This document shows, in pieces, positions 2,718-43,571 of a stretch of 64,000 bases of DNA. Source of the stretch: Klebsiella phage FKP3; sequence record PP895363.1; one strand, 5' to 3'. The position numbers and the translations under genes are program-made. How positions within the stretch are numbered: position 1 is the stretch's first letter; every line of letters begins with the position of its first letter. A model generated the notes under the pieces. It was given only the letters and a program-made list of their open reading frames with translations. It ran no database searches and was not told the DNA's origin.

Positions 2718-3181
2718 GTTAGTTACCTCGTTAAGTTAATTTCGTATTCCTGCCCTACGAGATAAATAATAGCATAACTGATATTTCATGCAAGAGTAGA
2801 TTTGTAAAGAACTGTAAAGAAAACAATTATATGCGAATAGCACACTATAAAATCTTTGTCAAATTTATTTTCATACCCTGTATAAACATACATACCTTTA
2901 AAACGCTCTAGAAACGATTTTAAGCGCTTTTTTGTCCGGGCAATACCCTAGCTCATAAACAAATAGATCTCACTAATAGGAATTTTTCTCATTTAGAAAT
3001 TAAAGTTGGCACGATGTTTGTTGCGAGTAATTCTCATTTGAAGGGAGGCGTCCAAGTTCGGTTAGCTTTCCTGAATGACAGGCAGGTTCGGTGTTTGTCT
3101 CCCCCTGCATCAGGTGCCATCGCATGGCATAAGGATACCAAAAAAGGGGCGATCAAGTCAACCCCTGTAAACACTGTGAAT

Positions 3182-3733: not shown

Positions 3734-3967
3734 TTAGATGGCTGTTTCCAGGAATTTAGCCAGATCACTAACTACACGATAAGGCTTGACAATTTCGAAT
3801 TTACCGGATTTAATGATCTCCGCTTTCATTTCGTCGTGTTCTGCCTTTGTTAAGGTGAAACGCCCCGCGCGATGATGCGCCCAATATTTACCGCTTACGC
3901 GCTCAAAAGATACGCTTTCAATGGTAATGATCTTGGATGCCATACTTTGCATCACCTGCTTTTTCAA
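3734..3967 (-). CDS. hypothetical protein (probably TTG or internal ATG start)
   Basis: ORF 77 aa downstream of promoter+hairpin. Confidence 0.45.
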   Translation of the reverse strand: MKKQVMQSMASKIITIESVSFERVSGKYWAHHRAGRFTLTKAEHDEMKAEIIKSGKFEIVKPYRVVSDLAKFLETAI

Positions 3968-4018
3968 TTGCTGCCGCTAATTTGTCTAAATCGAACATAA
4001 TGGAATCTCTCTCATTTA

Positions 4019-4037
4019 GCGGGGAACCACTCCCCGC
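4019..4037 (-). promoter_or_regulatory. conserved 5-prime-UTR stem-loop GCGGGGAAccaCTCCCCGC
   Basis: one of 5 related promoter-proximal hairpins in early region. Confidence 0.45.
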
Positions 4038-4049
4038 CTTATGTAATGG

Positions 4050-4078
4050 ATTATGCGCCCTTTCTTGGGTGCTGTCAA
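4050..4078 (-). promoter_or_regulatory. sigma70-like promoter (TTGACA-17-CATAAT) on minus strand
   Basis: read as reverse complement; followed by conserved hairpin 4019-4037. Confidence 0.45.
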
Positions 4079-4087
4079 CACTATTTT

Positions 4088-4543
4088 TTAGTAGTCTGCC
4101 AGGTTTTCAGGGTTAAGGAATGGGAAGTGATGATCCAACGTTAGGCCGTCCCATTGTGCTAAATTGTGCTCAGCGGTACGCTTCACTGCTAAGCCCTGCT
4201 CAATTTTAGCGGCGGCGTTGTCGATCCACTCTTGGCACATAGTACGCGCTTTCATCAGGAAAGCGGATTCACTAGGATAATTCCCTAAATGATCCATCTC
4301 TTCCAGTGCTGACATATAATCGCGAAATGCTTCGCTTGCTATATGTTGACCTTCACCAAATTTTGAATGATGATAAAAGAAATTAGTCGGATCTAAATAG
4401 TCAACTAAAATTTCAAAATCGCTTTCCATTGCTTCGCGGTTGGTATCGACTACGATCACGCCGTTACCACGTAAGGCGCTAACAATATGAGATTTACGGG
4501 TTAACACGTCGATCACTATTTGACCATAGCAGAATTTATTCAT
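4088..4543 (-). CDS. hypothetical protein
   Basis: ORF 151 aa. Confidence 0.5.
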   Translation of the reverse strand: MNKFCYGQIVIDVLTRKSHIVSALRGNGVIVVDTNREAMESDFEILVDYLDPTNFFYHHSKFGEGQHIASEAFRDYMSALEEMDHLGNYPSESAFLMKARTMCQEWIDNAAAKIEQGLAVKRTAEHNLAQWDGLTLDHHFPFLNPENLADY

Positions 4544-4654
4544 GATGCAATCCTTCGGATTTTGTGGCGCTGCATTATTGCCTCGCCCTATGGATAAATC
4601 ATAACAGATCGGGACGGGTAGTCAATAGCTAAAACGTAATTTTTACATTATTCA

Positions 4655-4930
4655 TTAGAAAACATCATTAACAATTGCAGCCACAAAAGCAGGCGCATAA
4701 TTTGCCGGGAAAGGCAAGGAAAAATCTTGGCTTGTTTCATCATCATTAGTAATGAAATGATAAGCAAGGGAGTAGTAACCTTTTGAAACTCTTTTCAAGC
4801 TAATGATTAGGATGCTTTCGGCGTTCTCTTTCAACGTGGCGATCATGGTGTCGCCGTCCTGGAATTGCTCAACCATTACGGCGGCGTTTTGCACTTCCTG
4901 AAACATCATTAAACTGTTAGCCTGAATCAT
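4655..4930 (-). CDS. hypothetical protein
   Basis: ORF 91 aa. Confidence 0.45.
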   Translation of the reverse strand: MIQANSLMMFQEVQNAAVMVEQFQDGDTMIATLKENAESILIISLKRVSKGYYSLAYHFITNDDETSQDFSLPFPANYAPAFVAAIVNDVF

Positions 4931-4985
4931 TTTTCTTTACCCTTTTGTTTGCCTGGCTTAAAGATAATCGATCAAGTGCTTCCTG

Positions 4986-5369
4986 TCAACCCTTTAAGTA
5001 ATAACAGCGCGCCATAGTATAAACAACCATTTTACCGATCATATTATCGATAGCCCTTGTCATAAGTGGGTTAACCTGGTAGGGCGCGTAATTCTGCCTC
5101 CCGTTTTCCGCGATCCGCGCTGCGATAAGCTCGCAGGATGCACCAGGGTCATTATTGAGAATAGGTATCATTTGAGAATCAAGCGCGTCCTCAAAGGTTT
5201 TTGATAAGGTGTAAGATCGTAGCGTTGCGTTATTATCACCTGATACAATTAACATTTTTTCAATGCTGGTGCGTAAATCACGGCTTGCGCTCATCACGTT
5301 GATCTCGGTGTCTGCTGCTGCGCTGGCGCTTACTGCTGCCAGCATAGCGGCGATGATAAATTTTTTCAT
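4986..5369 (-). CDS. secreted/periplasmic protein (N-terminal signal peptide MKKFIIAAMLAAVSASAAA)
   Basis: ORF 127 aa with canonical signal peptide. Confidence 0.5.
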   Translation of the reverse strand: MKKFIIAAMLAAVSASAAADTEINVMSASRDLRTSIEKMLIVSGDNNATLRSYTLSKTFEDALDSQMIPILNNDPGASCELIAARIAENGRQNYAPYQVNPLMTRAIDNMIGKMVVYTMARCYYLKG

Positions 5370-5460
5370 TTCGTTTCCTCCCCTAGCTGGCCTTTGACCC
5401 GCTTTATGTATTCATTATGTGCTATTATCGATGCAGTGTCTAATTGTTTAAATCTATCAA

Positions 5461-5643
5461 TCAAAGGTGTTTGATAGATATTACCATCTCCGGCTTCACT
5501 CGGTTTTTCAGGGTATCGATCAGCACGTCGCCGCCCTCGGTAGCCAGAATCACGCCGCTAATGATAAAGCCCCATTGATCACGGTAACGTGCTGAAAGTC
5601 TGCCGCCCTGGGCTAGTGCCTTTTGAATCTGTTCTAATGTCAT
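5461..5643 (-). CDS. hypothetical protein
   Basis: ORF 60 aa. Confidence 0.4.
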   Translation of the reverse strand: MTLEQIQKALAQGGRLSARYRDQWGFIISGVILATEGGDVLIDTLKNRVKPEMVISIKHL

Positions 5644-5925
5644 TGTCTAAGCTCCTGTAGTACGTTCTAAGCGGTTTTTATGGTGCTCCCTGGTGTTTGT
5701 ATGGCTCACTATAGAAAACGCTGTATAAAGCGAAAAGGACGCTATCTGCGCCCCTCCTTATTACTCCCAACGTCGTTTTTCACTCCGATCTCGTTTTGTT
5801 TTATTGCGCTTGTCTCCTTTGCGCCCGGTTTCATCGTCCCATGATTTTCGCTGTTTATCGCTTGCCATTTTTTCGACGTGGTGGCTGCCATTCATTTTTA
5901 AACCCTCATTTTATTTTCAAAGTGT

Positions 5926-5942
5926 GGCGGGAAGTTCCCGCC
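5926..5942 (-). promoter_or_regulatory. conserved stem-loop GGCGGGAAgTTCCCGCC
   Basis: member of GCGGGAA..TTCCCGC hairpin family. Confidence 0.4.
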
Positions 5943-6042
5943 GTTGTTGTGTATCTTATACCAGGTTGTAACCCTTCGCAAGGCTCATCAGTGAACCCGC
6001 CAGATAAAGCCAGTATTGATCACGCTCGCGGTCAATTGTTGC

Positions 6043-6327
6043 TTAGCGGCTAGTATGTTTCAGATAACCCCACTCAATCAAAAGAGAATCAATCTCATTA
6101 TAATAGAATGCAATGCCGATCTCACTCGGCAATCCCTGCAACCATGAGGCCATTGCTTTTGTCATGGTGCCGTAGCGCTGCTGATTTGCTGGATACCAAT
6201 ATTCACATTTAAAGCGGCGCATCAGTTCGGTGATCTTCTCTTCTTCGGTGGTAAACGTTTTGCCGTTCTCGCCTTCAAAGTTAATCGCCGCTAGGATGTA
6301 AGATTTTATTTTTTCTGCTGCTTTCAT
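6043..6327 (-). CDS. hypothetical protein
   Basis: ORF 94 aa. Confidence 0.5.
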   Translation of the reverse strand: MKAAEKIKSYILAAINFEGENGKTFTTEEEKITELMRRFKCEYWYPANQQRYGTMTKAMASWLQGLPSEIGIAFYYNEIDSLLIEWGYLKHTSR

Positions 6328-6351
6328 GGTGTTACCCTTATCTGATTTGGC

Positions 6352-6368
6352 GCGGGAACAACTCCCGC
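6352..6368 (-). promoter_or_regulatory. conserved stem-loop GCGGGAAcaaCTCCCGC downstream of minus-strand promoter
   Basis: hairpin family member; TTGACA-like -35 upstream on minus strand. Confidence 0.4.
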
Positions 6369-6423
6369 CGCCTTGAATACTAATCTACTTTAAACTGTTT
6401 ACCGTGTCAACCTGTTTTTAAAA

Positions 6424-6780
6424 TTATTCTTCGCTCTCTTCCAGATCTTCAATCTCACTTTCAAGGGCGCTTTCCTGCTCTTCCAACTCTTCCAGCTCTT
6501 CTGTCAGTGTAATATATTCCGGCACATCGTCAAGGTCTTTTTCACTGTCATAATCTGATTTGCCGCAACGGTACGCCGTAGGATCGAGATTCTTAAGAGC
6601 ATAAGAGGCGGTATAACTGCTGCCGCAAATGTCAATATCACCGTAGCATCCATCCAAATAAGAATCATACTCATCATCAGTTGACTCATAAGAGAAGTTG
6701 CGGATCTCTTTCTGTTTTGCATAGATAGCCTGTTTAACTTCCAGCAGTTCGGCGCGTTTCTCAATCAGGATGTTATTCAT
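6424..6780 (-). CDS. highly acidic small protein (Glu/Asp-rich C-terminus), possible DNA mimic
   Basis: 118 aa; C-terminal ELEELEEQESALESEIEDLEESEE. Confidence 0.5.
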   Translation of the reverse strand: MNNILIEKRAELLEVKQAIYAKQKEIRNFSYESTDDEYDSYLDGCYGDIDICGSSYTASYALKNLDPTAYRCGKSDYDSEKDLDDVPEYITLTEELEELEEQESALESEIEDLEESEE

Positions 6781-6940
6781 AATCTTATCTCTTATTTAGT
6801 GATATTTGATAAATCAGCGTAGGTAATAACAACACAAACTAAACCAATTGCAAGCGTTGCGAGGCATAAAACGAAAAATTTTCTTTTTTCTGTTTTATTG
6901 ATAAAAAGACTTGCTTCCATCATCATTTTATGCTTAGGAT

Positions 6941-7162
6941 TCATTTTTCTACTACCAATTGATACCAAGTTTCAACGTTGGTGAATACGATTTTCCCGTC
7001 CTCGCGTTCACTCATCAGCAAGCAAGGCGATAACATACGTTCGGCGGCTTTACAATCTGCATAAGCTGTGCTGATCTCGCCTGGCTTGCTATCATCTGCC
7101 GGGAAAGTATCATTAATAAACACGTTGCCAGCCACCAGGGAAATAATTGCAAATGTAACCAT
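6941..7162 (-). CDS. small secreted protein (signal peptide)
   Basis: ORF 73 aa, hydrophobic N-terminus. Confidence 0.4.
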   Translation of the reverse strand: MVTFAIISLVAGNVFINDTFPADDSKPGEISTAYADCKAAERMLSPCLLMSEREDGKIVFTNVETWYQLVVEK

Positions 7163-7495
7163 TTTACACCTCGTTAGATTGTTTGGTTTCTCTCTTCAAT
7201 GCCTCTTATTATAAAGAGGCATCACAGAAAGTCAACTTATTTTTTAACGATATTCATCCAAGGCAAGCTCGGCAAACGCTTTAAAAGCCTGCTCCGCCTC
7301 ATCATAATAATCGTAAGTTTCGGATTGTTCCCCATATGTTACGGTATATTGCAGATCCTCATAAGTCATAATAACCGGGTCGATACCTTTTATTTTAAGT
7401 TCTGCGATAATTTCCATTTGCTTACTCTCTTTGTTGGGCTAGTTTCTCTTCTCTATAGCGCCCATTATAGGACGCTATAACGAAAAGTCAACTGC

Positions 7496-7774
7496 TTATT
7501 TAACAGCGTGCCAGTAGTTTTTTGAACAGCCGATCACTGCAACGGCGTCGCCGCTTTCTGTGCGTACATGATGCATGATTTTACCGTCCTTAGTGGTGGA
7601 AGTTTCGGCGTAGATTGCCGCCACCTTATCGAACGGAATTTCAGCTCCACCCTTAACCATTTTGCCGTCGCCATTAGTGGCGAAACCAATGAATACAGAA
7701 TCACCGATACGCGGGGTTTTCAGCAGGTTAGTAGTAGTTGTCATGTGTATCTCCTTTATTGATGATATAGGCAT
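7496..7774 (-). CDS. hypothetical protein
   Basis: ORF 92 aa. Confidence 0.45.
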   Translation of the reverse strand: MPISSIKEIHMTTTTNLLKTPRIGDSVFIGFATNGDGKMVKGGAEIPFDKVAAIYAETSTTKDGKIMHHVRTESGDAVAVIGCSKNYWHAVK

Positions 7775-7852
7775 TATTGCCGGATGTTTCTTTTTCTCTA
7801 TGCCGTACAGGATAGCACGGCATAACGAAAAGTCAACTTATTTTTTCAGGCT

Positions 7853-8005
7853 CAAGGTGCCTTTGCCATCGTTATGAGACAAACCAGGGAAGATCCAACC
7901 GTTTTCGCCTTTCACTGGTGCTTTCAATTTAGCAGGTGCAACGGCGTTAACTTTACGGGCTACGTTGCGAGCGGCTTCGCGAGTATTCATGGCGATCATA
8001 ATTTT
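7853..8005 (-). CDS. small hypothetical protein (50 aa, not in ORF track)
   Basis: hand translation MIAMNTREAARNVARKVNAVAP...; preceded by promoter+hairpin. Confidence 0.35.
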
Positions 8006-8019
8006 TCTCTCTTTGTTGT

Positions 8020-8038
8020 GGCGGGAATCATTCCCGCC
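8020..8038 (-). promoter_or_regulatory. conserved stem-loop GGCGGGAAtcaTTCCCGCC
   Basis: hairpin family member. Confidence 0.45.
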
Positions 8039-8048
8039 TTGATTAACA

Positions 8049-8075
8049 GTTTACTTTATTTTAGAAGGTTGTCAA
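8049..8075 (-). promoter_or_regulatory. sigma70-like promoter TTGACA-17-TAAACT (minus strand)
   Basis: reverse-complement reading. Confidence 0.45.
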
Positions 8076-8101
8076 CCTTATTTTATAAGATTGACTATTT
8101 T

Positions 8102-8320
8102 CTACATTCCAACCATTGCAGCGCGGATCGTGGTCTTGCTATACGGTGCGCCGTCCGGCGTTTTCTTGCTCACGCTGCGTAACATTTTGGCGGCGGCTTC
8201 GTCGCGGTTGTCAGTGGATGCAATGCAATTCATTGCAAGGCGGTATAATCCCTCATCGTTATTAATCCACAATGAAACGTTCCAATGATTCCAGTTTTTG
8301 TGACCGTTATATTTTGCCAT
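8102..8320 (-). CDS. hypothetical protein
   Basis: ORF 72 aa. Confidence 0.45.
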   Translation of the reverse strand: MAKYNGHKNWNHWNVSLWINNDEGLYRLAMNCIASTDNRDEAAAKMLRSVSKKTPDGAPYSKTTIRAAMVGM

Positions 8321-8606
8321 AATGCTAACCTTTTCAGCTTAGGCGGTTCGCCTATCTCCCCGCCTTGATATGAATATTAGACCCTTTGGATCTGCCTGTC
8401 AACTACTTTTTTACGCTGCTTTCGATACTAACCACAAGGTAAAACCGATAACTACCCACAATGGAACCGAAAGGATTAGTGCATTGATAATACCAGTGAA
8501 AAAACAGTTTTCTTTCTTGATTAACATAATCTATCCTCTTTGGTGTCGGCATCATTGCCGCCCTATGTGGTACATTATGCGCCCTCCCTGGGCGCTTGTC
8601 AATCCC

Positions 8607-9155
8607 TTATTTAAAATAATTTCGTAGGGCTTGCGCTGCCTCTTCCGGTGTCGGATGATACGGCGTGATCGCGTCCTCTTCCAGGACTACCGGATCAAGC
8701 TCCGGCTCTTCCTCCGGCGCGTTCTCTTCCTCCAGGAGTACAGATCCCACCAGCTTATCGATCTTGCGCTGTGCCTTGTCTGCTTTCACGTCTAGGACGC
8801 GCAAGGCGCTACGATAAAGGTTCTCAGGCATCTTTCCCGCCTCATATGCTTTCGTAAGCGCTGCCACCTTGCCAGGGTACTCTAACAGCGTCTTAAACGC
8901 TGGATCTACCAGCAGTAGCGGATCACCTTTCGCATCATCTGCCGGATCTGCTGCCCCGGCAATGTCTGCGCGGCCATTAGGTAGCCAACCCGGCACCGTG
9001 GCGCGGATCGCCGTGTTCCCGTTGTTACGGGCTACACGTTGGCCCACTTGCTCGCCACTGTACCCGCTAGCAGTGTCCAGGAGGTGAGGAGGGATCACCC
9101 TCCAATCATCCTCATCATGTTTGACCCAAGATTGTACAACATGCTCGCGCCCCAT
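8607..9155 (-). CDS. hypothetical protein
   Basis: ORF 182 aa, RBS GAGGGGG upstream of ATG. Confidence 0.5.
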   Translation of the reverse strand: MGREHVVQSWVKHDEDDWRVIPPHLLDTASGYSGEQVGQRVARNNGNTAIRATVPGWLPNGRADIAGAADPADDAKGDPLLLVDPAFKTLLEYPGKVAALTKAYEAGKMPENLYRSALRVLDVKADKAQRKIDKLVGSVLLEEENAPEEEPELDPVVLEEDAITPYHPTPEEAAQALRNYFK

Positions 9156-9420
9156 AGGTTAACCCCCTCGTTACTAACTCACAAACACGGTATAGGCTCC
9201 CCGCGTCTCTGGACGGTAGCCACCCGATCCGGTACTTCCCTATTTCCACCTTTGTAACATCCTTTACCTCGGCATTACGATGATTAAAGATAGTGTATCC
9301 GCCGCCTATCCGTTTGTAAACGTTCTCTTTAAACGTCATTGCATACCGTGCCAGATCGTAGGCTGTTGAATCCATGAAGGCGATCACCTCGCCCTCACAG
9401 TTTAAAAACAGTGGCTTCAT
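9115..9420 (-). CDS. hypothetical protein
   Basis: ORF 101 aa (41-nt overlap with next gene). Confidence 0.4.
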   Translation of the reverse strand: MKPLFLNCEGEVIAFMDSTAYDLARYAMTFKENVYKRIGGGYTIFNHRNAEVKDVTKVEIGKYRIGWLPSRDAGSLYRVCELVTRGLTYGARACCTILGQT

Positions 9421-9596
9421 TACGTTATTATTTCCCCCATCTGGTAAACCCCGCGCCCTGGTTAGATTTTAACTCACGTTTCAAACGAGCGCAACGGCTT
9501 GCGATAGCGAAACGGGAGGGAGTTACAACGGTTGATCCGGTATTGGTGTGGATTTTCATTACACGTTGTTTCATAATCTTCTACCTTTGGTGAGGC

Positions 9597-9613
9597 GCGG
9601 GAACCATTCCCGC
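9597..9613 (-). promoter_or_regulatory. conserved stem-loop GCGGGAAccaTTCCCGC
   Basis: hairpin family member. Confidence 0.45.
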
Positions 9614-9627
9614 TGCCTATGAAGTGA

Positions 9628-9655
9628 ATTATACGTTACTGTGCGAATCTGTCAA
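9628..9655 (-). promoter_or_regulatory. sigma70-like promoter TTGACA-16-TATAAT (minus strand)
   Basis: reverse-complement reading; consensus -10. Confidence 0.5.
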
Positions 9656-9661
9656 GCGGTT

Positions 9662-9964
9662 TTATTCGATATCTAAAAGTTTTTTCAGGCGGTTGATCTT
9701 CGCTTCGCGCTGCTCATGAGTGATCACGCTCATTTCGACCAGGGAATCAAGGAAAGCACATACAACACAATAACCATTAAAATCACCTTCTCTTTCCATT
9801 TCACAAAAGCCATTAACAAGCACTTGGATTATATCGTCACCCGTTACAGCGTGCTTATAAACTACGACGTGTAATGTTGCCATTTTCTTTTCTTCCTGAT
9901 ACGCGCAGCGCCTATCGCCTCGCCTTGTGTAGGAAATAATAGTCCGGTGAGATCTTCCCGTCAA
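9662..9964 (-). CDS. hypothetical protein
   Basis: ORF 100 aa. Confidence 0.45.
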   Translation of the reverse strand: MTGRSHRTIISYTRRGDRRCAYQEEKKMATLHVVVYKHAVTGDDIIQVLVNGFCEMEREGDFNGYCVVCAFLDSLVEMSVITHEQREAKINRLKKLLDIE

Positions 9965-10070
9965 TACTTGGATGCAAATATTTTTCTAAATCTTTTCTCT
10001 TGCGTTTTCCCTTCATTAGTATATAGTAGTTATCAAGCCGCCACGGTGGAGGCATAACAAGGAAAGCAAC

Positions 10071-10247
10071 ATGATCACAACATCCGATACTATCGTAATG
10101 CTGTACACTTGGGAAACATCAGCTAACCATTGCCAGGCGCGATCTGTTCCCTTACCTCACGCGCTGCGTATGTTGGACGGTGGATTTTATCGGGTTAAAG
10201 TAGTGGCGGAAAACGGCGAAGTGTTAGCGGATACCCTGTATAATTAA
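10071..10247 (+). CDS. small hypothetical protein (58 aa)
   Basis: hand-found ORF with AAGGA RBS; GC hairpin + T-run downstream. Confidence 0.35.
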   Translation: MITTSDTIVMLYTWETSANHCQARSVPLPHALRMLDGGFYRVKVVAENGEVLADTLYN

Positions 10248-10586: not shown

Positions 10587-10615
10587 TTGACACGTCCCAG
10601 GGAATGGGGCATAAT
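10587..10615 (+). promoter_or_regulatory. strong sigma70-like promoter TTGACA-17-CATAAT
   Basis: read directly; transcribes into palindrome/iteron region with no clear ORF. Confidence 0.5.
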
Positions 10616-10866
10616 GTACCCATACAGGAGATGACACGCCTACCAACGGCGGTAAACTTGGGTGATGATAGCCGCAGGGCATCGACCGCTATAATCGCCG
10701 GTAGCTCGCCTTGAATAGTTTTGTAAAGAAATGTAAAGACCCTTGATCCTGTTGTTGGTTGTGTTATTATTTCTACATGGACAGGGGAACGGTGCTGGCG
10801 AGACAATCACCGCCCCTGCGCGTCATTCTGCAAATGCGAATGAGTATTATTTCGCTTTTAATTGAG

Positions 10867-10885
10867 AATGAGAATGATTCTCATT
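10867..10885. promoter_or_regulatory. 19-bp palindrome copy 3 (AATGAGAAT-G-ATTCTCATT) flanked by degenerate half sites
   Basis: perfect 9-bp arms; nearby gcattctcat and atgagaatagttctcatt partial copies. Confidence 0.5.
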
Positions 10886-10929
10886 TGCATTCTCATCTTA
10901 CATGAGAATAGTTCTCATTAACATCTGGA

Positions 10930-11170
10930 GATTTTTTGAGAATTCTAAATTTTGATCCTGAAAAAATCTAGATCGAAAAGTAAAAAAACTTTTAATAATT
11001 GGGGAATTTTTTGGAAATTTTAAATTTCAGTTTACGTTTTTTCTGTAGCAAGATGCAGAAAAAGTTTAAATAATTTAGGGAAATTCTAAATTTCAGTTTG
11101 CTATATTTTCAGCATAACTTCCACAAAAGTTTTAAATAATTTGAGCACTTTGTTAAAACTTTACTTGGGT
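10930..11170. repeat. iteron-like imperfect direct repeats (AAAAgTTTtAAATAATTtGGG..AATTcTAAATTTCAGTTTgC), 3-4 copies
   Basis: visible repeated units at about 10938, 10985, 11060 and 11125. Confidence 0.55.
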
Positions 11171-16037: not shown

Positions 16038-16082
16038 ATTCTTACTCCTCTCAGAATGCCAACACTTTCTTTGTTTTATGTT

Positions 16083-16111
16083 GACAAAGAATCCTGTTTT
16101 GTGTTATACTT
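16083..16111 (+). promoter_or_regulatory. sigma70-like promoter TTGACA-17-TATACT
   Basis: consensus -35, good -10, 20 nt upstream of 16133 gene; divergent from minus operon. Confidence 0.55.
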
Positions 16112-16132
16112 CACTCCTTTTAGTCACAAGGA

Positions 16133-17089
16133 GTGAACATGCTTTACAATCTAACTGAAACAGATATTATACCTAATGAGCACACAGGTCAAGCCTGTTT
16201 TGAAAATAGTTACATTCTAGGTCACATAATGGTGAAAAGAACTAAGAAATATGTAGTACATTGTCCAGAGTGCGCGAAGGATACGGAACTCTTTCCACAA
16301 CCTTTATTTACCACCTACCAGAAATACATAGATACGAATGTTGCACCTTGTGGTTGTAATCCACTGTATAGCTTCAGCCATGAACAAAGGCAGATAATTC
16401 TGGAGCGCCTTTATCCAGGTGGACATGTCCGTAGGGTATCACTTGAAGACTTAGGTGTACATACTAAGTATGAGGTAATTTGCAAACAAGGACACAGCCG
16501 TACAGGTAGTTTTACGAACATCCGAAGATCTCAAGGTTGCTTCAAGTGCGCTGTTCATCAACGTAGACAAGCTGCTAAAGTCAAGGTTGAAGCAGATATC
16601 TTAGAGTACCTAACAAAGAACTCCCTGCCTTACAAGTTTAAATATGTGGACGAAGCATTTCAAAATGTCAACTCTGAAATGGTTTTTGAGTGTCCTACTC
16701 ACGGAATTAAACGTCAGAAAATTAGTGCCTTTTTGTCTGGTCATTGGTGTAGAGATTGCAGTTGCCGACCGCGTCGTTATGCTTATGTTTTAAGCATTCA
16801 AGATCAAGGTTTACCTGTAGCGTTAAAGTTCGGGATAACTAAAAATGTACATTGCCGTGTTAAAGCCTTAAACAAGCGTAACCTATTCAAGGCCGACATC
16901 ATTTGTGTTTACGAGTTTGAGAACGACCACGATAGTATTGCGGCAGAAACAGAGTTAAAGTCCATACTTCCTATTTTACTATCTAAAAGGGAGATGAAGG
17001 ATGGTAGCTCTGAAACCACATCTATACAGTACCTAGATACAATTATTAAGGTCTACATTAAGCATGGTGGTAAATTGATCAACCTATAA
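16133..17089 (+). CDS. zinc-ribbon protein with C-terminal GIY-YIG/T5orf172-like domain (homing-endonuclease-like)
   Basis: four CxxC pairs (HCPEC, GCFKC, ECPTHG, WCRDC) and YAYVLS...KFGITKN..R motif resembling the T5orf172/GIY-YIG core. Confidence 0.4.
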   Translation: MNMLYNLTETDIIPNEHTGQACFENSYILGHIMVKRTKKYVVHCPECAKDTELFPQPLFTTYQKYIDTNVAPCGCNPLYSFSHEQRQIILERLYPGGHVRRVSLEDLGVHTKYEVICKQGHSRTGSFTNIRRSQGCFKCAVHQRRQAAKVKVEADILEYLTKNSLPYKFKYVDEAFQNVNSEMVFECPTHGIKRQKISAFLSGHWCRDCSCRPRRYAYVLSIQDQGLPVALKFGITKNVHCRVKALNKRNLFKADIICVYEFENDHDSIAAETELKSILPILLSKREMKDGSSETTSIQYLDTIIKVYIKHGGKLINL

Positions 17090-21752: not shown

Positions 21753-23759
21753 ATGAACGTAGGCTTAATTTTTGGCAAATTTGCACCACTAACAGCAGGA
21801 CACGTCAACTTCATTCGTATGGCTGTAGACTCAGGTATTGATCGGCTATATCTGTTTCTGTCGTTTGACCAGAAGTTTAACGACACTCAAACACCTTGGA
21901 TGCAAGACCGCCTTGGTTTAACTCAGCGTTTATTGGATCTTAAATCTTTAATTCATGACTCAGGCTTACAACACAAAGTGATTGTAGATTATGTGGATGA
22001 GTCTGATATTCCTGGTTATCCAGAAGGTGGTAAGGCTTATGCCGAGTTGATTCGTGCTAAAATCCCAGAAGGTGAGATCCTCACTCATGCTTTCTCTTCT
22101 GAGCCGGAGTATACTGAGTACTTTTCCGAGCATTTCCCCGAGGTGGAGCACGTTGTGCTGGATGCAGAGCGTACAGGAGTGGATATCTCTGCAACACGTA
22201 TTCGTACTAATCTACGTGACAACTTCGAGTATTTGTCAAATCAAGCTCGTCCTCGTTTTGTTAAGCGGGTAGCTATCATTGGTGTTGAGAGTTGTGTAGA
22301 TAATTTAACCGAATACTTTGACGGTACAAACTGGAAAAAGATGGATGAGTACCGAGAAGGAGATAAAGTTCTACAATATAACCCTAATGGTTCTGCATCT
22401 CTTGTCCTACCTGAACGTTACATAGCGCAACCCTGTAATAAAATGTACCTGTTGGCTAATAGTTACCAAACTTGGGAACAAGCTTACACGGAAGATCACG
22501 ATATTGTGTATGTTACTTCCAAAGGGAAATTGAAGAAAACACCTTTTAAAAGAGTAAAAGAAGATATTCAGTTTAAACCACACGGTTTTCGGGGAAAGTT
22601 ACTAACCTCTTTTATCTACTCTGGGGAGTTGACACTTCCTGAAAACAACATTCGTTTAGCTGTTATGTTAAGCGCGGACGGAAGTAAACAGAAGAACGGA
22701 ACGTGGCGTGTAAGACTGCTAAAACAACGTAAAGTTCTCAGGGCTAGAGAGTTGATCTTGGCGAGTGGTTATCCTTTGGATGAACGTATTTATGAAGACG
22801 GTTCTCATAACTTCTATCTTCCTAGCGAAGCAGGTTTTAAACTTTTTCCTGATACCTGGTATGAGCTAACAAAAGAATGCAAAGAATATATTTGTGAAGA
22901 AGTTTTATACTGGGATGGTACTAAGAAGACTTCTACATACTTTACCACAGAGAAAAAGAATGCTGAATTTGTACAATACTGTTTCTCTTCAACAGGAAAA
23001 AAGACAAGGTATAGTATAGATAATCGGGAAAATAAACCTTTGACTTACTCTGTGCAATGGTGTAGAAATACAAAGTATCTAACACTAGATGTGAATTCAT
23101 TTAATGAGACACATCGAGAACAAATGGTAAGGGATTACGTGCCAACTGATGGAATGTGTTATTGTTTTACTGTGCCTAGTGGTATGCTAGTGTTGCGTAG
23201 AAATAATCATATCTTTATTACTGGGAACTGTGGAAAATCTACTATGACTGAGGTTCTAGCACAACACTACGGAACAACATCGACACCCGAAGTAGGACGG
23301 CATATTTGCGAACAGATGTACAACGGCAGCGAATTTTTAATGGATCGTGAAGCATATCTTAAGATTGCTATGATCCACCGTATCGAGGAGTTTAGTAACT
23401 CAAACCAGGCAAATGTTGTGCATATTTCAGATACAACTAATCTGATCACTCATTTTTCTGCGATTTGTGCTGGTAAAGTATCTGCTAATGATAAAATGTT
23501 TCGTATGTTATCGCATGAAGAGGCTAGCAAATTTTATGATTTAGTGTTATTCTTGTCCCCAGAGGTGGAGTGGGTAGAAGACCCTCTTCGACTTCAAAAT
23601 ACACCAAGAAAACGCCTTGACACGCATAACTTTCTTGATATGATGGTAACACAATACTACGATGGTCGTGTGCCTGTGGTTCATATTACGGGTGATGACT
23701 ACGAAGATCGTATTAACCAGGCAATAACTGCCATTGATTTACTCTTAGAGGAGAACTAA
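21753..23759 (+). CDS. NadR-like bifunctional NMN adenylyltransferase / ribosylnicotinamide kinase precursor containing an intein
   Basis: N-terminus GKFAPLTAGHVNFI and RTGVDISATRIR match E. coli NadR NMNAT (GKFYPLHTGHIYLI, RTFMSISGAQIR). The C-terminus from ...ITGN-CGKSTMTEVL to the end matches the NadR kinase domain. The two halves are split inside the P-loop by 312 aa. Confidence 0.7.
   Translation: MNVGLIFGKFAPLTAGHVNFIRMAVDSGIDRLYLFLSFDQKFNDTQTPWMQDRLGLTQRLLDLKSLIHDSGLQHKVIVDYVDESDIPGYPEGGKAYAELIRAKIPEGEILTHAFSSEPEYTEYFSEHFPEVEHVVLDAERTGVDISATRIRTNLRDNFEYLSNQARPRFVKRVAIIGVESCVDNLTEYFDGTNWKKMDEYREGDKVLQYNPNGSASLVLPERYIAQPCNKMYLLANSYQTWEQAYTEDHDIVYVTSKGKLKKTPFKRVKEDIQFKPHGFRGKLLTSFIYSGELTLPENNIRLAVMLSADGSKQKNGTWRVRLLKQRKVLRARELILASGYPLDERIYEDGSHNFYLPSEAGFKLFPDTWYELTKECKEYICEEVLYWDGTKKTSTYFTTEKKNAEFVQYCFSSTGKKTRYSIDNRENKPLTYSVQWCRNTKYLTLDVNSFNETHREQMVRDYVPTDGMCYCFTVPSGMLVLRRNNHIFITGNCGKSTMTEVLAQHYGTTSTPEVGRHICEQMYNGSEFLMDREAYLKIAMIHRIEEFSNSNQANVVHISDTTNLITHFSAICAGKVSANDKMFRMLSHEEASKFYDLVLFLSPEVEWVEDPLRLQNTPRKRLDTHNFLDMMVTQYYDGRVPVVHITGDDYEDRINQAITAIDLLLEEN
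22293..23228 (+). mobile_element. intein (312 aa) with LAGLIDADG-type homing endonuclease motif, inserted in the kinase P-loop
   Basis: begins with Cys (CVDNLTEY..GDKVL block A-like), has TEDH (TxxH block B-like) and LAVMLSADGSK (LAGLIDADG-like), ends ...FITGN with +1 Cys; excision restores GVES-CGKST Walker A. Confidence 0.6.
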
Positions 23760-36117: not shown

Positions 36118-36198
36118 AAGCTTGCATTTTATAAAAAAGAGCGTATAGTTAGTTGCATAGAGGGAGAGACTGTCTCTCCCTTCAATAAAGGAGAAAAT

Positions 36199-38238: not shown

Positions 38239-38478
38239 ATGTTTAATAATGCAAAGAAAGGTGATATCGCGGTAATGGTAGATACGGACTTTTCAGCACA
38301 CGGAGATAAAGATCAACTGGAGATTGTCCTAGTTGACGAAGAGGGTATCTACGTCTACGATCCGAATGACAGACTCCTTTTCGAACATGCCAGTGGTGTT
38401 GAATACAGCTTCTGTATTGACTTCAACGGTAAGTTGGCAGGACGTGAGCCAGCAATTAAAGAAATCATTCCGCAGTAA
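38239..38478 (+). CDS. hypothetical protein
   Basis: ORF 79 aa. Confidence 0.45.
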   Translation: MFNNAKKGDIAVMVDTDFSAHGDKDQLEIVLVDEEGIYVYDPNDRLLFEHASGVEYSFCIDFNGKLAGREPAIKEIIPQ

Positions 38479-39445
38479 GGTTGACTTTTGCTTAGGGATA
38501 CTTCATAGTGTCCCTTGTCAAGAGAAATAAATAAATGAAGGAGAAAGTATGAAACTTATTTTAGGTCGTGTGTACAATCTGAGCGGTTCCAGTTTTTCTA
38601 CACAAGTTTTAGAAGATAATAATAATCTGTTCTGGCTGGATCACATTGATCAGAGGATGAACGAGTGGCGTTTTAAAGGTTTGACTACAGGGGATTTTCA
38701 GTGGTCAAGCGCGGCTATGATCCGTGCTGGTGAAGCAGAAATTTTCTTGGTAGATGATAAACCGAAACGTGGTAAGCGTAAGAAAGGCCCATCTCGTAAA
38801 GCACCAAGTGTGAATAAGGCGACTATTCTGTTCATGAGCGGGGAAACCTACACTGTAAAAGGCTTTGTGTCCCTTGAAGCCACTGCTGAAAAAACTGTGT
38901 TTATTATGGAAGACACTTGGAAGGATACAGTAAATAGCCGTAATGGCGACTATTCTGTTCATGAGCGGGGAAACCTACACTGTAAAAGGCTTTGTGTCCC
39001 TTGAAGCCACTGCTGAAAAAACTGTGTTTATTATGGAAGACACTTGGAAGGATACAGTAAATAGCCGTAATGCAATCACTGTGTACAATGAGGATATTGC
39101 GCAGATAGATGTTCGTGGAATTAAGCATCAAGTGGTATTAGATATGGCTTTGAAAGATGAAGGCACGTTAGTGCTTCATTCTAAAGATATGCTAATATTT
39201 TTATCAGATCTAACTATTGCGGAATAAATAACAAAAGATGCATAGTACAAGAGATATTCTAAATTTATGGAAAACTACATTATGTAAATTTAAAGAAGAC
39301 TTTCCTGAATACGATGCCCTGCTAAAGGCCAACGGATGGCGAGCAGGTGTTAGAGAAAAAAGAAATAAATCTTTTGGTTGGGCAGATAATAGAAGTAAGT
39401 TAGTTATTATCAATTGGCATCTGCATAAAAACTCGGAAGAGCATA
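38446..39445. repeat. tandem duplication unit 1 (exactly 1000 bp)
   Basis: 38446-39445 identical to 39446-40445. Confidence 0.9.
38549..39227 (+). pseudogene. gene disrupted by internal 127-bp tandem duplication (two ORF fragments 38549..39004 and 38943..39227)
   Basis: 127-bp unit 38819-38945 repeated at 38946-39072 shifts frame; junction creates a new in-frame ATG for the C-terminal fragment. Confidence 0.6.
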
Positions 39446-39459
39446 GAGCCAGCAATTAA
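39238..39459 (+). pseudogene. truncated copy of SprT-like gene (N-terminal 70 codons) ending at duplication junction
   Basis: identical to first 208 nt of 40238..40816, then diverges at the 1000-bp repeat boundary. Confidence 0.6.
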
Positions 39460-40445
39460 AGAAATCATTCCGCAGTAAGGTTGACTTTTGCTTAGGGATA
39501 CTTCATAGTGTCCCTTGTCAAGAGAAATAAATAAATGAAGGAGAAAGTATGAAACTTATTTTAGGTCGTGTGTACAATCTGAGCGGTTCCAGTTTTTCTA
39601 CACAAGTTTTAGAAGATAATAATAATCTGTTCTGGCTGGATCACATTGATCAGAGGATGAACGAGTGGCGTTTTAAAGGTTTGACTACAGGGGATTTTCA
39701 GTGGTCAAGCGCGGCTATGATCCGTGCTGGTGAAGCAGAAATTTTCTTGGTAGATGATAAACCGAAACGTGGTAAGCGTAAGAAAGGCCCATCTCGTAAA
39801 GCACCAAGTGTGAATAAGGCGACTATTCTGTTCATGAGCGGGGAAACCTACACTGTAAAAGGCTTTGTGTCCCTTGAAGCCACTGCTGAAAAAACTGTGT
39901 TTATTATGGAAGACACTTGGAAGGATACAGTAAATAGCCGTAATGGCGACTATTCTGTTCATGAGCGGGGAAACCTACACTGTAAAAGGCTTTGTGTCCC
40001 TTGAAGCCACTGCTGAAAAAACTGTGTTTATTATGGAAGACACTTGGAAGGATACAGTAAATAGCCGTAATGCAATCACTGTGTACAATGAGGATATTGC
40101 GCAGATAGATGTTCGTGGAATTAAGCATCAAGTGGTATTAGATATGGCTTTGAAAGATGAAGGCACGTTAGTGCTTCATTCTAAAGATATGCTAATATTT
40201 TTATCAGATCTAACTATTGCGGAATAAATAACAAAAGATGCATAGTACAAGAGATATTCTAAATTTATGGAAAACTACATTATGTAAATTTAAAGAAGAC
40301 TTTCCTGAATACGATGCCCTGCTAAAGGCCAACGGATGGCGAGCAGGTGTTAGAGAAAAAAGAAATAAATCTTTTGGTTGGGCAGATAATAGAAGTAAGT
40401 TAGTTATTATCAATTGGCATCTGCATAAAAACTCGGAAGAGCATA
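39446..40445. repeat. tandem duplication unit 2 (exactly 1000 bp)
   Basis: exact copy of the preceding 1000 bp. Confidence 0.9.
39549..40227 (+). pseudogene. second copy of the 127-bp-duplication-disrupted gene
   Basis: identical to 38549..39227. Confidence 0.6.
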
Positions 40446-43477: not shown

Positions 43478-43571
43478 AATATTTCTTGACACTTAGAAAG
43501 AAAAGAGTAGAATAAGTTTCACAAAGGGGAGAGATGGCTCTCCCCAGTAAACAAAATAAAGGAGAATATAC

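Follow-up and report, generated by a model that had tools for sequence, protein, structure and literature searches.

In the 64,000-nucleotide (nt) stretch of the genome of Klebsiella phage FKP3 (PP895363.1) analyzed here, referred to as the window, nearly every small gene of unknown function in an early, highly variable region is preceded by a cassette that resembles the promoter-early stem-loop (PeSL) cassettes of T4-like phages. Each cassette combines a sigma70-like promoter with a GC-rich stem-loop, most often placed after the -10 box. A first-pass annotation of the window had described five such hairpins on the minus strand as a shared, non-terminator element located between a sigma70-type promoter and the ribosome-binding site. 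This description was borne out by the position of the hairpins, by compensatory changes in their stems, and by their recurrence in related phages. They are, however, not the full set: the window contains at least 12 cassettes, including two on the plus strand. We give about an even chance to the explanation that the stem-loop serves as a 5' hairpin on each early mRNA, where it would hinder 5'-end-dependent decay and might also act as a barrier within read-through transcripts.

All five hairpins were found where the first-pass annotation had placed them, each downstream of a promoter. Folding energies are predicted for RNA and are given with their z-scores.

9628..9655, minus strand: promoter TTGACA-16-TATAAT, 12/12 matches to the sigma70-like promoter
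9594..9617 (core 9597-9613), minus strand: leader hairpin GGCaGCGGGAA-tgg-TTCCCGCGCC; start codon 9574; 33.6 bits; -17.2 kcal/mol, z -3.08
8048..8075, minus strand: promoter TTGACA-16-TAAACT
8020..8038, minus strand: leader hairpin GGCGGGAA-tga-TTCCCGCC; start codon 7999; 47.7 bits; -14.6 kcal/mol, z -4.25
6382..6410, minus strand: promoter TTGACA-17-TAGATT
6349..6372 (core 6352-6368), minus strand: leader hairpin GGCGgCGGGA-gttgt-TCCCGCGCC; start codon 6327; -16.4 kcal/mol, z -2.95
5953..5981, minus strand: weaker promoter TTGCGA-17-TAAGAT, 8/12 matches; TTGCAA-17-TAAGAT in the phi1_175008 orthologue
5926..5942, minus strand: leader hairpin GGCGGGA-act-TCCCGCC; start codon 5895, 30 nt downstream; -13.7 kcal/mol, z -4.40
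4050..4078, minus strand: promoter TTGACA-17-CATAAT, with a second, imperfect inverted repeat in its spacer (4055-4072)
4018..4038 (core 4019-4037), minus strand: leader hairpin (G)GCGGGGA-gtggt-TCCCCGC(T); start codon 3997; 27.6 bits; -16.9 kcal/mol, z -3.95

The palindrome proposed for all five, GCGGGAA-N3-TTCCCGC, is exact in the hairpins at 8020-8038 and 9597-9613, the latter reading GCGGGAA-tgg-TTCCCGC from 9613 to 9597. The hairpin at 6352-6368 departs from it by one mismatch, and its core (GCGGGA-gttgt-TCCCGC, 6368-6352) is effectively a 6-bp stem with a 5-nt loop; those at 5926-5942 and 4019-4037 are variants of the same hairpin. With up to 2 mismatches allowed, the pattern was found 3 times in the window, against 0.09 expected (0/100 shuffles). 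Two of the three promoters named earlier, 4050-4078 and 9628-9655, could be confirmed, while the third is TTGACA-16-TAAACT at 8048-8075, rather than a promoter with a 17-nt spacer beginning at 8049. The two hairpins for which no promoter had been named also have one, at 6382-6410 and, weaker, at 5953-5981.

The distances are narrowly distributed. The perfect stem core begins 14 (9613), 9 (8038), 13 (6368), 10 (5942), and 12 nt (4037) after the -10 box, a range of 9-14 nt that falls within the 5-15 nt claimed before. The start codon had been placed 15-25 nt past the stem, which holds for four hairpins, at 20-24 nt (22 nt from 9597, 20 nt from 8020, 24 nt from 6352, and 21 nt from 4019), and fails for the 5926 hairpin, at 30 nt. 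Predicted folding energies of the five run from -13.7 to -17.2 kcal/mol, with z-scores of -2.95 to -4.4.

Hairpins of this kind are enriched in the window, and specifically behind promoters. Perfect GC-rich hairpins number 37, compared to 8.7 in Markov simulations, and 5/37 begin 6-16 nt past a promoter scoring at least 10/12, where random placement gives 0.28 (maximum 4 in 2000 trials). Eight sources, comprising the window, its Klebsiella relatives, the E. coli phage nieznany, and rV5, supplied 114 unique gene-proximal strong promoters for a census. A strong hairpin starts 8-14 nt after the -10 box in 31/114 of these, where shuffles expect 1.3, an enrichment of about 24-fold. The hairpin spans the -10 box in another 15/114 (0.4 expected) and lies in the spacer in 9/114 (0 expected); it is found farther downstream in 2, at another position in 3, and is lacking in 54. 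The same three main placements occur within the window, with at least 10 copies after the -10 box, 3 spanning it, and 2 in the spacer.

Pairing, orientation and recurrence in related phages

The stems vary in sequence among cassettes, while complementarity is kept. Besides GGCGGGAA/TTCCCGCC, the arms read GCGGGGA/TCCCCGC, GGCGGCA/TGCCGCC, GGGGGA/TCCCCC (in the KP2025 orthologue of the hairpin at 6352-6368), AGCGGTAA/TTATCGCT, GGGGAGAG/CTCTCCCC, and GGGAGAGA/TCTCTCCC. The step from GGCGGGAA/TTCCCGCC in the window to AGCGGTAA/TTATCGCT in FBKp34 involves two double changes and one G.U pair, and in the group of the 4625 promoter GGCG/CGCC is replaced by AGCG/CGCT. The loops differ as well: they read tga, tgg, gttgt, act, and gtggt in the five hairpins, and range from 3 to 13 nt across copies, with bulges present. 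Stem-breaking changes occur in some copies, among them orthologues of the hairpin at 8542-8563, and the copy at 5385-5403 is weak.

A covariance-model search, as the first-pass annotation had suggested, recovers all five hairpins and both plus-strand cassettes. The model was built from eight cassettes with a fixed-geometry seed, and replaced a MAFFT alignment of 20 cassettes in which the 3' arms were misaligned because loop lengths differ. It scores the sense strand about twice as high as the antisense strand. In the resulting alignment, which is fitted to the model and takes in antisense hits and unrelated hairpins, pairing is found in 95.4% of cells and both-side changes at 7/8 pairs, with a covariation score of 0.366; shuffles gave 0.136, with 0/500 reaching the observed value, and slid controls gave no more than 0.098. 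Because of these antisense hits and unrelated hairpins, pairs were recounted on 28 unique promoter-linked rows, where compensatory pair types persist at 5/8 positions and the core GCGG/CCGC is nearly invariant.

The hairpins are also asymmetric with respect to strand. In 36/36 unique leader hairpins, both plus-strand cassettes included, the arm that leads on the sense strand is the purine-rich one (G 163 vs C 44), and the arm orientation of the spacer class is the opposite. This dependence of orientation on class suggests class-specific constraints tied to the start of transcription.

Between positions 3800 and 9900, the window is about 93% identical to Klebsiella phages KP2025 and KP13-26, with patchier matches to phi1_175008, FBKp34, and others. 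The nearest relatives are myoviruses with genomes of roughly 140-150 kb, assigned to the subfamily Stephanstirmvirinae (phAPEC8-like) wherever their records state one, and these matches indicate that the window likewise belongs to a Klebsiella phage of this subfamily. The same cassettes are present in KP2025, KP13-26, phi1_175008, and FBKp34, as well as in Klebsiella phage 05F01 and the E. coli phage nieznany (Phapecoctavirus; more than a dozen cassettes), a relative that grows on E. coli K-12 MG1655. The same architecture is found in rV5 (Vequintavirinae). Promoters of the CATAAT...ACACCAACAAAAGAG type in the relatives carry no hairpin. At 22365-22408 of the FBKp34 record, what the annotation calls a terminator is one of these leader hairpins (CATAGGGAGAG-atagc-CTCTCCC), just 5' of a start codon. 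Annotation would gain from recognizing the cassettes, as several such hairpins are now labeled terminators or left unannotated.

One recombination junction lies within a hairpin. Synteny with the relatives breaks at 9594-9613, inside the hairpin of the 9655 cassette: up to GCGGGAATGGTTCCCGCGCC this cassette equals the relatives' upstream cassette, and thereafter it equals the cassette about 1 kb farther downstream. In the relatives, two copies of GCGGGAATGGTTCCCGCGCC are separated by about 1 kb that carries two extra genes. Other breakpoints are located at the edges of promoter cassettes (8076-8103, 7837, 7440-7442, 7243-7248, and 4628-4657), and one, at 6939-6946, is in a gene overlap and not at a cassette. 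As nearly all intergenic DNA in this region is cassette, only the junction within the hairpin counts as strong evidence. The cassettes explain where genes are gained and lost in these genomes.

Possible functions of the leader hairpins

If the leader hairpins protect early mRNAs, host RNA polymerase would start at a conserved CA, predicted about 7-8 nt after the -10 box, and the stem would begin about 1-6 nt into the RNA (about 0-7 unpaired nt across the 8-14-nt class, as counted from the predicted start). The hairpin would then form the extreme 5' end of the mRNA, followed by an unstructured A/C-rich leader and the Shine-Dalgarno sequence. Such a base-paired 5' terminus would be a poor substrate for RppH (a pyrophosphohydrolase) and for 5'-end-dependent RNase E, so that each short early mRNA would persist longer. 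Within read-through transcripts from upstream cassettes, the same hairpin could be a 3' barrier or a mild attenuator that insulates neighboring genes. As a by-product, near-identical cassettes could provide sites of homologous exchange, at which genes are added, deleted, or swapped. What the sequences show directly is the anatomy of the cassettes, their enrichment, their conservation with paired changes, the strand asymmetry, and a single recombination junction, while the transcription start, the folding of the RNA in vivo, and any effect on stability are inferred. Stabilization or processing of the mRNA had been among the roles suggested by the first-pass annotation, and it is the one we find most plausible for the leader subclass, given the predicted transcription start. 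In E. coli, 5' secondary structure is known to stabilize mRNAs, because both RppH and RNase E depend on a 5' end that is unpaired (review PMC3997798, citing Emory 1992, Bouvet and Belasco 1992, and Arnold 1998).

The hairpins could also be read as terminators. The first-pass annotation had observed that no U-tract follows any of the five, and we find the same; their 3' flanks are A/C-rich (gcctcaccaaag, acaacaaagaga, gccaaatcag, acactttgaaaa, and taaatgagag). A terminator scan of the window called only one of the five, as 5924-5944, and on the opposite strand. Canonical U-tract terminators do serve the same array, at 1877-1899 and at 3138-3166, and an intrinsic terminator was rejected for the leader subclass on both grounds. 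The terminator at 3138-3166 overlaps a promoter on the minus strand and is a composite of the two: a T-tract comes after the hairpin AGGGG...CCCCT, whose loop contains the -35 box (TTGACT) of the promoter that follows. Among 2.9 million viral contigs of IMG/VR scanned for GGCGGGAA-N3-TTCCCGCC, 116 sites were found. A T-tract follows 82/116, which therefore look like ordinary terminators, and the promoter-linked, T-less architecture occurs at only 4/116, on contigs that include three of 137-153 kb.

A related possibility, corresponding to the original interpretation of PeSLs, is that the stem-loop acts as an attenuator, terminator, or 3'-end barrier only for transcription arriving from upstream cassettes, its position in its own leader being incidental. 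The three placements are interchangeable within one array, at sites that leave the promoter sequence unconstrained, and the PeSLs of RB49 look alike and are likewise without U-tracts. Moreover, when assayed with a reporter, the PeSL211/210 stem-loop lowered downstream lacZ to a degree similar to that of rrnB T1 (PMC2839356), and the hairpins resemble terminator stems, the identical palindrome being a terminator stem in many other phages. Despite this, we consider it rather unlikely that the hairpins act solely on incoming transcripts. The absence of a U-tract in an array that has true U-tract terminators, together with the strict purine-first orientation of the downstream class, the opposite of that in the spacer class, favors a function within the RNA that the cassette itself produces. 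If it were a strong terminator, a stem at +3 to +25 would also abort the transcripts of its own near-consensus promoter. In addition, a hairpin is present even at 9936-9964, the promoter that opens the minus-strand array and has no co-directional gene before it.

Several points weigh against protection of the 5' end. The transcription start is only predicted, and a start inside or after the stem would defeat a role resembling that of a 5' cap. In the same arrays, the stem-loop spans the -10 box in 15 promoters and sits in the spacer in 9, positions that keep it out of the RNA made from that promoter; these sister classes point to a further or different function in read-through RNA, as attenuator or 3' barrier. 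All classes would be accounted for more simply by one role that does not depend on position, exerted in read-through RNA or in DNA. The narrow range of positions was downgraded as proof of a 5'-end role, since it partly reflects the limited space from transcription start to Shine-Dalgarno sequence, itself only about 35-45 nt. The GCGG/CCGC sequence is conserved beyond the need of pure structure, for which shared descent or gene conversion could be the source. Much of the covariation comes from paralogous copies that were picked partly for folding and aligned by fitting to the model. On the sense strand, G.U and A.C mismatches number 7 and 6, few and mixed cases in which G.U shows no clear excess, and these consequently give no independent RNA-level signature. 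Finally, losing RppH affects only about 10% of the mRNAs of E. coli, and direct entry of RNase E is possible (PMC3997798), so the benefit may be modest. In the literature, no usable mapped transcription starts or transcriptomes were found for Stephanstirmvirinae or Phapecoctavirus, and the rV5 genome paper lists promoters and terminators with no mention of leader hairpins.

An element common to many early leaders across a phage subfamily, with a GCGG/CCGC stem core and an AAT-rich stem top that are partly conserved, might instead be the RNA binding site of a phage or host regulator of early genes, acting through translational repression, targeted processing, or antitermination. We find this improbable, as the loops vary in both sequence and length, some cassettes have entirely different stems, and no candidate regulator was found, the neighboring genes all being of unknown function. 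The first-pass annotation had named, among other roles, the target of a phage translational or antitermination regulator. An N-type antiterminator or another loop-specific regulator found no support: the loops vary, the leaders contain no boxA-like sequence, and Rfam gave no match at gathering score in the 64 kb, nor at E<=1 in 3800-10100. A lambda N-type nut site was rejected, since no leader has a boxA match (the count is below chance) and the loop is different in every copy. A bolder version, which we regard as a long shot, is a subfamily-wide post-transcriptional regulon, in which a putative phage factor would recognize the G-rich-first 5' hairpin and stabilize or shut off all host-takeover transcripts. 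The cassettes would then also be dedicated modules that move ORFans between rV5-like and phAPEC8-like phages.

At the DNA level, perfect palindromes of 17-19 bp at +3 to +25 of strong promoters occupy a classic roadblock position, and the sister-class repeats around the -10 box or in the spacer fall in the polymerase footprint. The element might accordingly be the operator of a dimeric early-promoter repressor, or a supercoiling-responsive cruciform that tunes the promoter. Neither the sequence nor the spacing of the half-sites is fixed, however, as would be expected of a palindromic operator: arm substitutions are paired and compensatory, loops span 3-13 nt, and bulges occur. A symmetric operator would not need the purine-first orientation seen throughout the leader class, and we judge a DNA-level role quite improbable. 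It is even harder to believe that the hairpin is a functionless passenger, such as a decayed terminator, in a promoter cassette spread by duplication and recombination. The cassettes are clearly homologous and recombining, degraded copies exist (the orthologues of 8542-8563, and 5385-5403), and so do hairpin-less promoters (4961-4989 and the CATAAT...ACACCAACAAAAGAG type in relatives), but compensatory changes keep the pairing across divergent copies and subfamilies, and the enrichment over shuffles speaks against it as well.

Mimicry of the repeats of clustered regularly interspaced short palindromic repeats (CRISPR) systems was also considered. The type I-E repeat forms the hairpin CCCCGC...GCGGGG, and as the order of the arms is reversed here, this candidate was set aside.

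Further cassettes and other features of the window

About 13 cassettes are packed into the minus-strand array at 3.8-10 kb, a dense run of small open reading frames (ORFs). Matches of 10-12/12 to a sigma70-like promoter are found at 9655, 8602, 8402, 8075, 7836, 7491, 7235, 6410, 4625, and 4078, each after a taa/aaaa-rich sequence. Ten of the array proteins were tested, and nine match solely PHROG families of unknown function; the tenth, encoded at 4986-5369, had no PHROG match. The gene content of the array varies among close relatives, and the FBKp34 record annotates a promoter before many of the equivalent genes. In addition to the five hairpins above, the window contains the following cassettes.

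9903..9964, minus strand: promoter TTGACG-17-TATTAT (9936-9964) and imperfect hairpin GCGaGGCG-atagg-CGCtgCGC (9903-9923); -10.2 kcal/mol, z -1.26 (weak)
8542..8602, minus strand: promoter TTGACA-17-CATAAT, spacer hairpin GCGCCC-aggga-GGGCGC (8579-8595), and leader hairpin GGGCGGCA-atga-TGCCGaCaCC (8542-8563); -9.8 kcal/mol, z -3.35
8341..8402, minus strand: promoter TTGACA-17-TAATAT and leader hairpin AGGCGG...CCGCCT, or alternatively TAGGCG-aac-CGCCTA; -10.7 kcal/mol, z -1.33
5385..5442, minus strand: weak cassette, TAGACA-17-CATAAT and AGCgGGtC-aaa-GgCCaGCT; -7.4 kcal/mol, z -1.73
4566..4625, minus strand: promoter TTGACT-16-TATGAT and leader hairpin GGCGagGCA-ataa-TGCagCGCC (4566-4587); -11.4 kcal/mol, z -2.16
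43486..43545, plus strand: TTGACA-16-TAGAAT, 12 nt, GGGGAGAG-atgg-CTCTCCCC; start codon 43572; 22.9 bits; -16.1 kcal/mol, z -4.51
36121..36181, plus strand: TTGCAT-17-TATAGT, 11 nt, AGGGAGAGA-ctg-TCTCTCCCT; start codon 36199 (membrane-protein PHROG); 19.8 bits
7799..7836, minus strand: sister class, TTGACT-16-TATCCT, inverted repeat TATGCCGT/ACGGCATA flanking the -10 box
7454..7491, minus strand: sister class, TTGACT-16-TATAAT, inverted repeat TATAGCGtCC/GGgCGCTATA flanking the -10 box
7199..7235, minus strand: sister class, TTGACT-16-TATAAT, inverted repeat ATGCCTCTT/AAGAGGCAT flanking the -10 box

Both plus-strand cassettes share the geometry of those on the minus strand, while their stem sequences are unrelated, the arms at 36121-36181 being GGGAGAGA/TCTCTCCC. 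The arms that flank the -10 box at 7836, 7491, and 7235 differ in sequence, with complementarity kept in all three. Inverted repeats in the spacer are carried by promoters 8602 and 4078. Among the strong promoters of the window that were inspected, promoter 4989 (4961-4989) showed no stem-loop. The ORF after promoter 4078 (3917-3997, minus strand) has 26 codons, whereas FBKp34 annotates a protein of 74 amino acids with the same MFDLD start; a frameshift or truncation may have occurred in this phage.

Two further plus-strand sites combine a strong promoter with an inverted repeat. At 10587-10700, a strong TTGACA-17-CATAAT promoter has an inverted repeat in its spacer, and the sequence beyond it, about 100 nt long, is GC-rich and structured and contains no obvious ORF. 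A unit resembling it is present in phage 05F01 (1672 of its compared stretch, minus strand), and the transcript is a candidate small RNA. At 16081-16140, TTGACA-18-TATACT is directly followed by a 10-bp hairpin, TTCACTCCTT...AAGGAGTGAA, which may occlude translation: an ORF that begins at 16133 (HNH/endonuclease PHROG) has its Shine-Dalgarno sequence in the 3' arm.

Upstream of the array, the ORF-poor sequence at 10840-10920 (plus strand) contains GAGAAT-based palindromes (TGAGAATGAGAATGATTCTCATT, TGAGAATAGTTCTCATT) that look like Fur boxes with one T-to-G change per hexamer; the equivalent place in KP13-26 (about 12836 of its compared stretch) reads GCAAATGATAATCATTCTCATT. This cluster may be a putative iron-responsive or phage-repressor operator. 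It is followed, at 10930-11110, by an AT-rich, ORF-poor segment between divergent gene arrays with iteron-like repeats of about 20 nt (…gaaattctaaatttcagttt…), which may mark a replication origin. Elsewhere in the window, 38446-39445 and 39446-40445 form an exact tandem duplication of 1000 bp (100% identity) that doubles a promoter-like site and an ORF of 151 amino acids. The closest relatives align a 2.9-kb query across the duplication to only about 1.74 kb, and therefore carry a single copy. The duplication could be recent, or it could be an artefact of assembly or data.

Comparison with known systems

Intrinsic terminators share with the leader hairpins a GC-rich stem of 7-9 bp, a loop of 3-5 nt, and a G-rich 5' arm. 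The hairpins described here differ in that they lack a U-tract and lie just past a promoter, 20-30 nt before a start codon. The nut sites of lambda and the put sites of HK022 similarly place an RNA hairpin in an early leader below a strong early promoter. Unlike nut, however, the FKP3 element has no conserved loop and no boxA, and unlike put, in which two hairpins make up about 70 nt, it consists of one short hairpin. It also differs from both in being present before nearly every gene, and not once per operon.

Stem-loops that act as 5'-terminal stabilizers are also found in the leaders of T7 gene 10 and T4 gene 32. As in the hairpin of the ompA 5' untranslated region and in papA (PMC3997798), the arrangement in FKP3 lacks a U-tract and consists of a stable hairpin a few nucleotides at most from the predicted 5' end, after which come a leader without structure and the ribosome-binding site. 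What sets it apart is that the 5' end is here a predicted one, and that the element is repeated before dozens of genes in a mobile-looking cassette. Whether phages in general use a hairpin at the 5' terminus to protect early mRNAs could be tested cleanly with these cassettes, which are also compact natural promoter-leader modules for expression design.

Judged by its sequence features, the closest known kind is the PeSL cassette of T4-like phages, which has been described in RB49/phi1, T4/PST, and KVP40/nt-1 (Arbiol et al. 2010, PMC2839356; Comeau et al. 2014, PMC4122927). PeSLs consist of a near-consensus sigma70 promoter and a G-run/C-run stem-loop, located in the spacer, across the -35 or -10 box, upstream of -35, or after -10. 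They concentrate in ORFan-rich variable regions and at indel junctions, and one of their stem-loops attenuated a reporter (PMC2839356, PMC4122927); recombination between cassettes is described as yielding mini-circles. The FKP3 cassettes agree with them in having a near-consensus sigma70 promoter right after the upstream stop codon and within an AT-rich stretch, a stable G-run/C-run stem-loop within the cassette, and a Shine-Dalgarno sequence and start codon within about 100 bp. They are likewise present in many copies in an ORFan-rich variable region and at indel or replacement junctions between close relatives, and the spacer, -10-spanning, and after--10 placements are all seen both here and in RB49. 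They differ in their stem consensus and in their dominant placement, which is after the -10 box and inside the predicted transcript, whereas the RB49 sequence, read directly, has mostly spacer or -10-spanning stem-loops. The lineage is different as well, being Stephanstirmvirinae and rV5-like rather than Straboviridae/T4-like. With every sequence-level feature of PeSLs present in a lineage other than those described, we call the cassettes PeSL-like, outside the described set. Cassettes of the PeSL type are not peculiar to T4-like phages, but also organize the variable early regions of phAPEC8-like and rV5-like myoviruses, which are widely isolated for E. coli and Klebsiella therapy.

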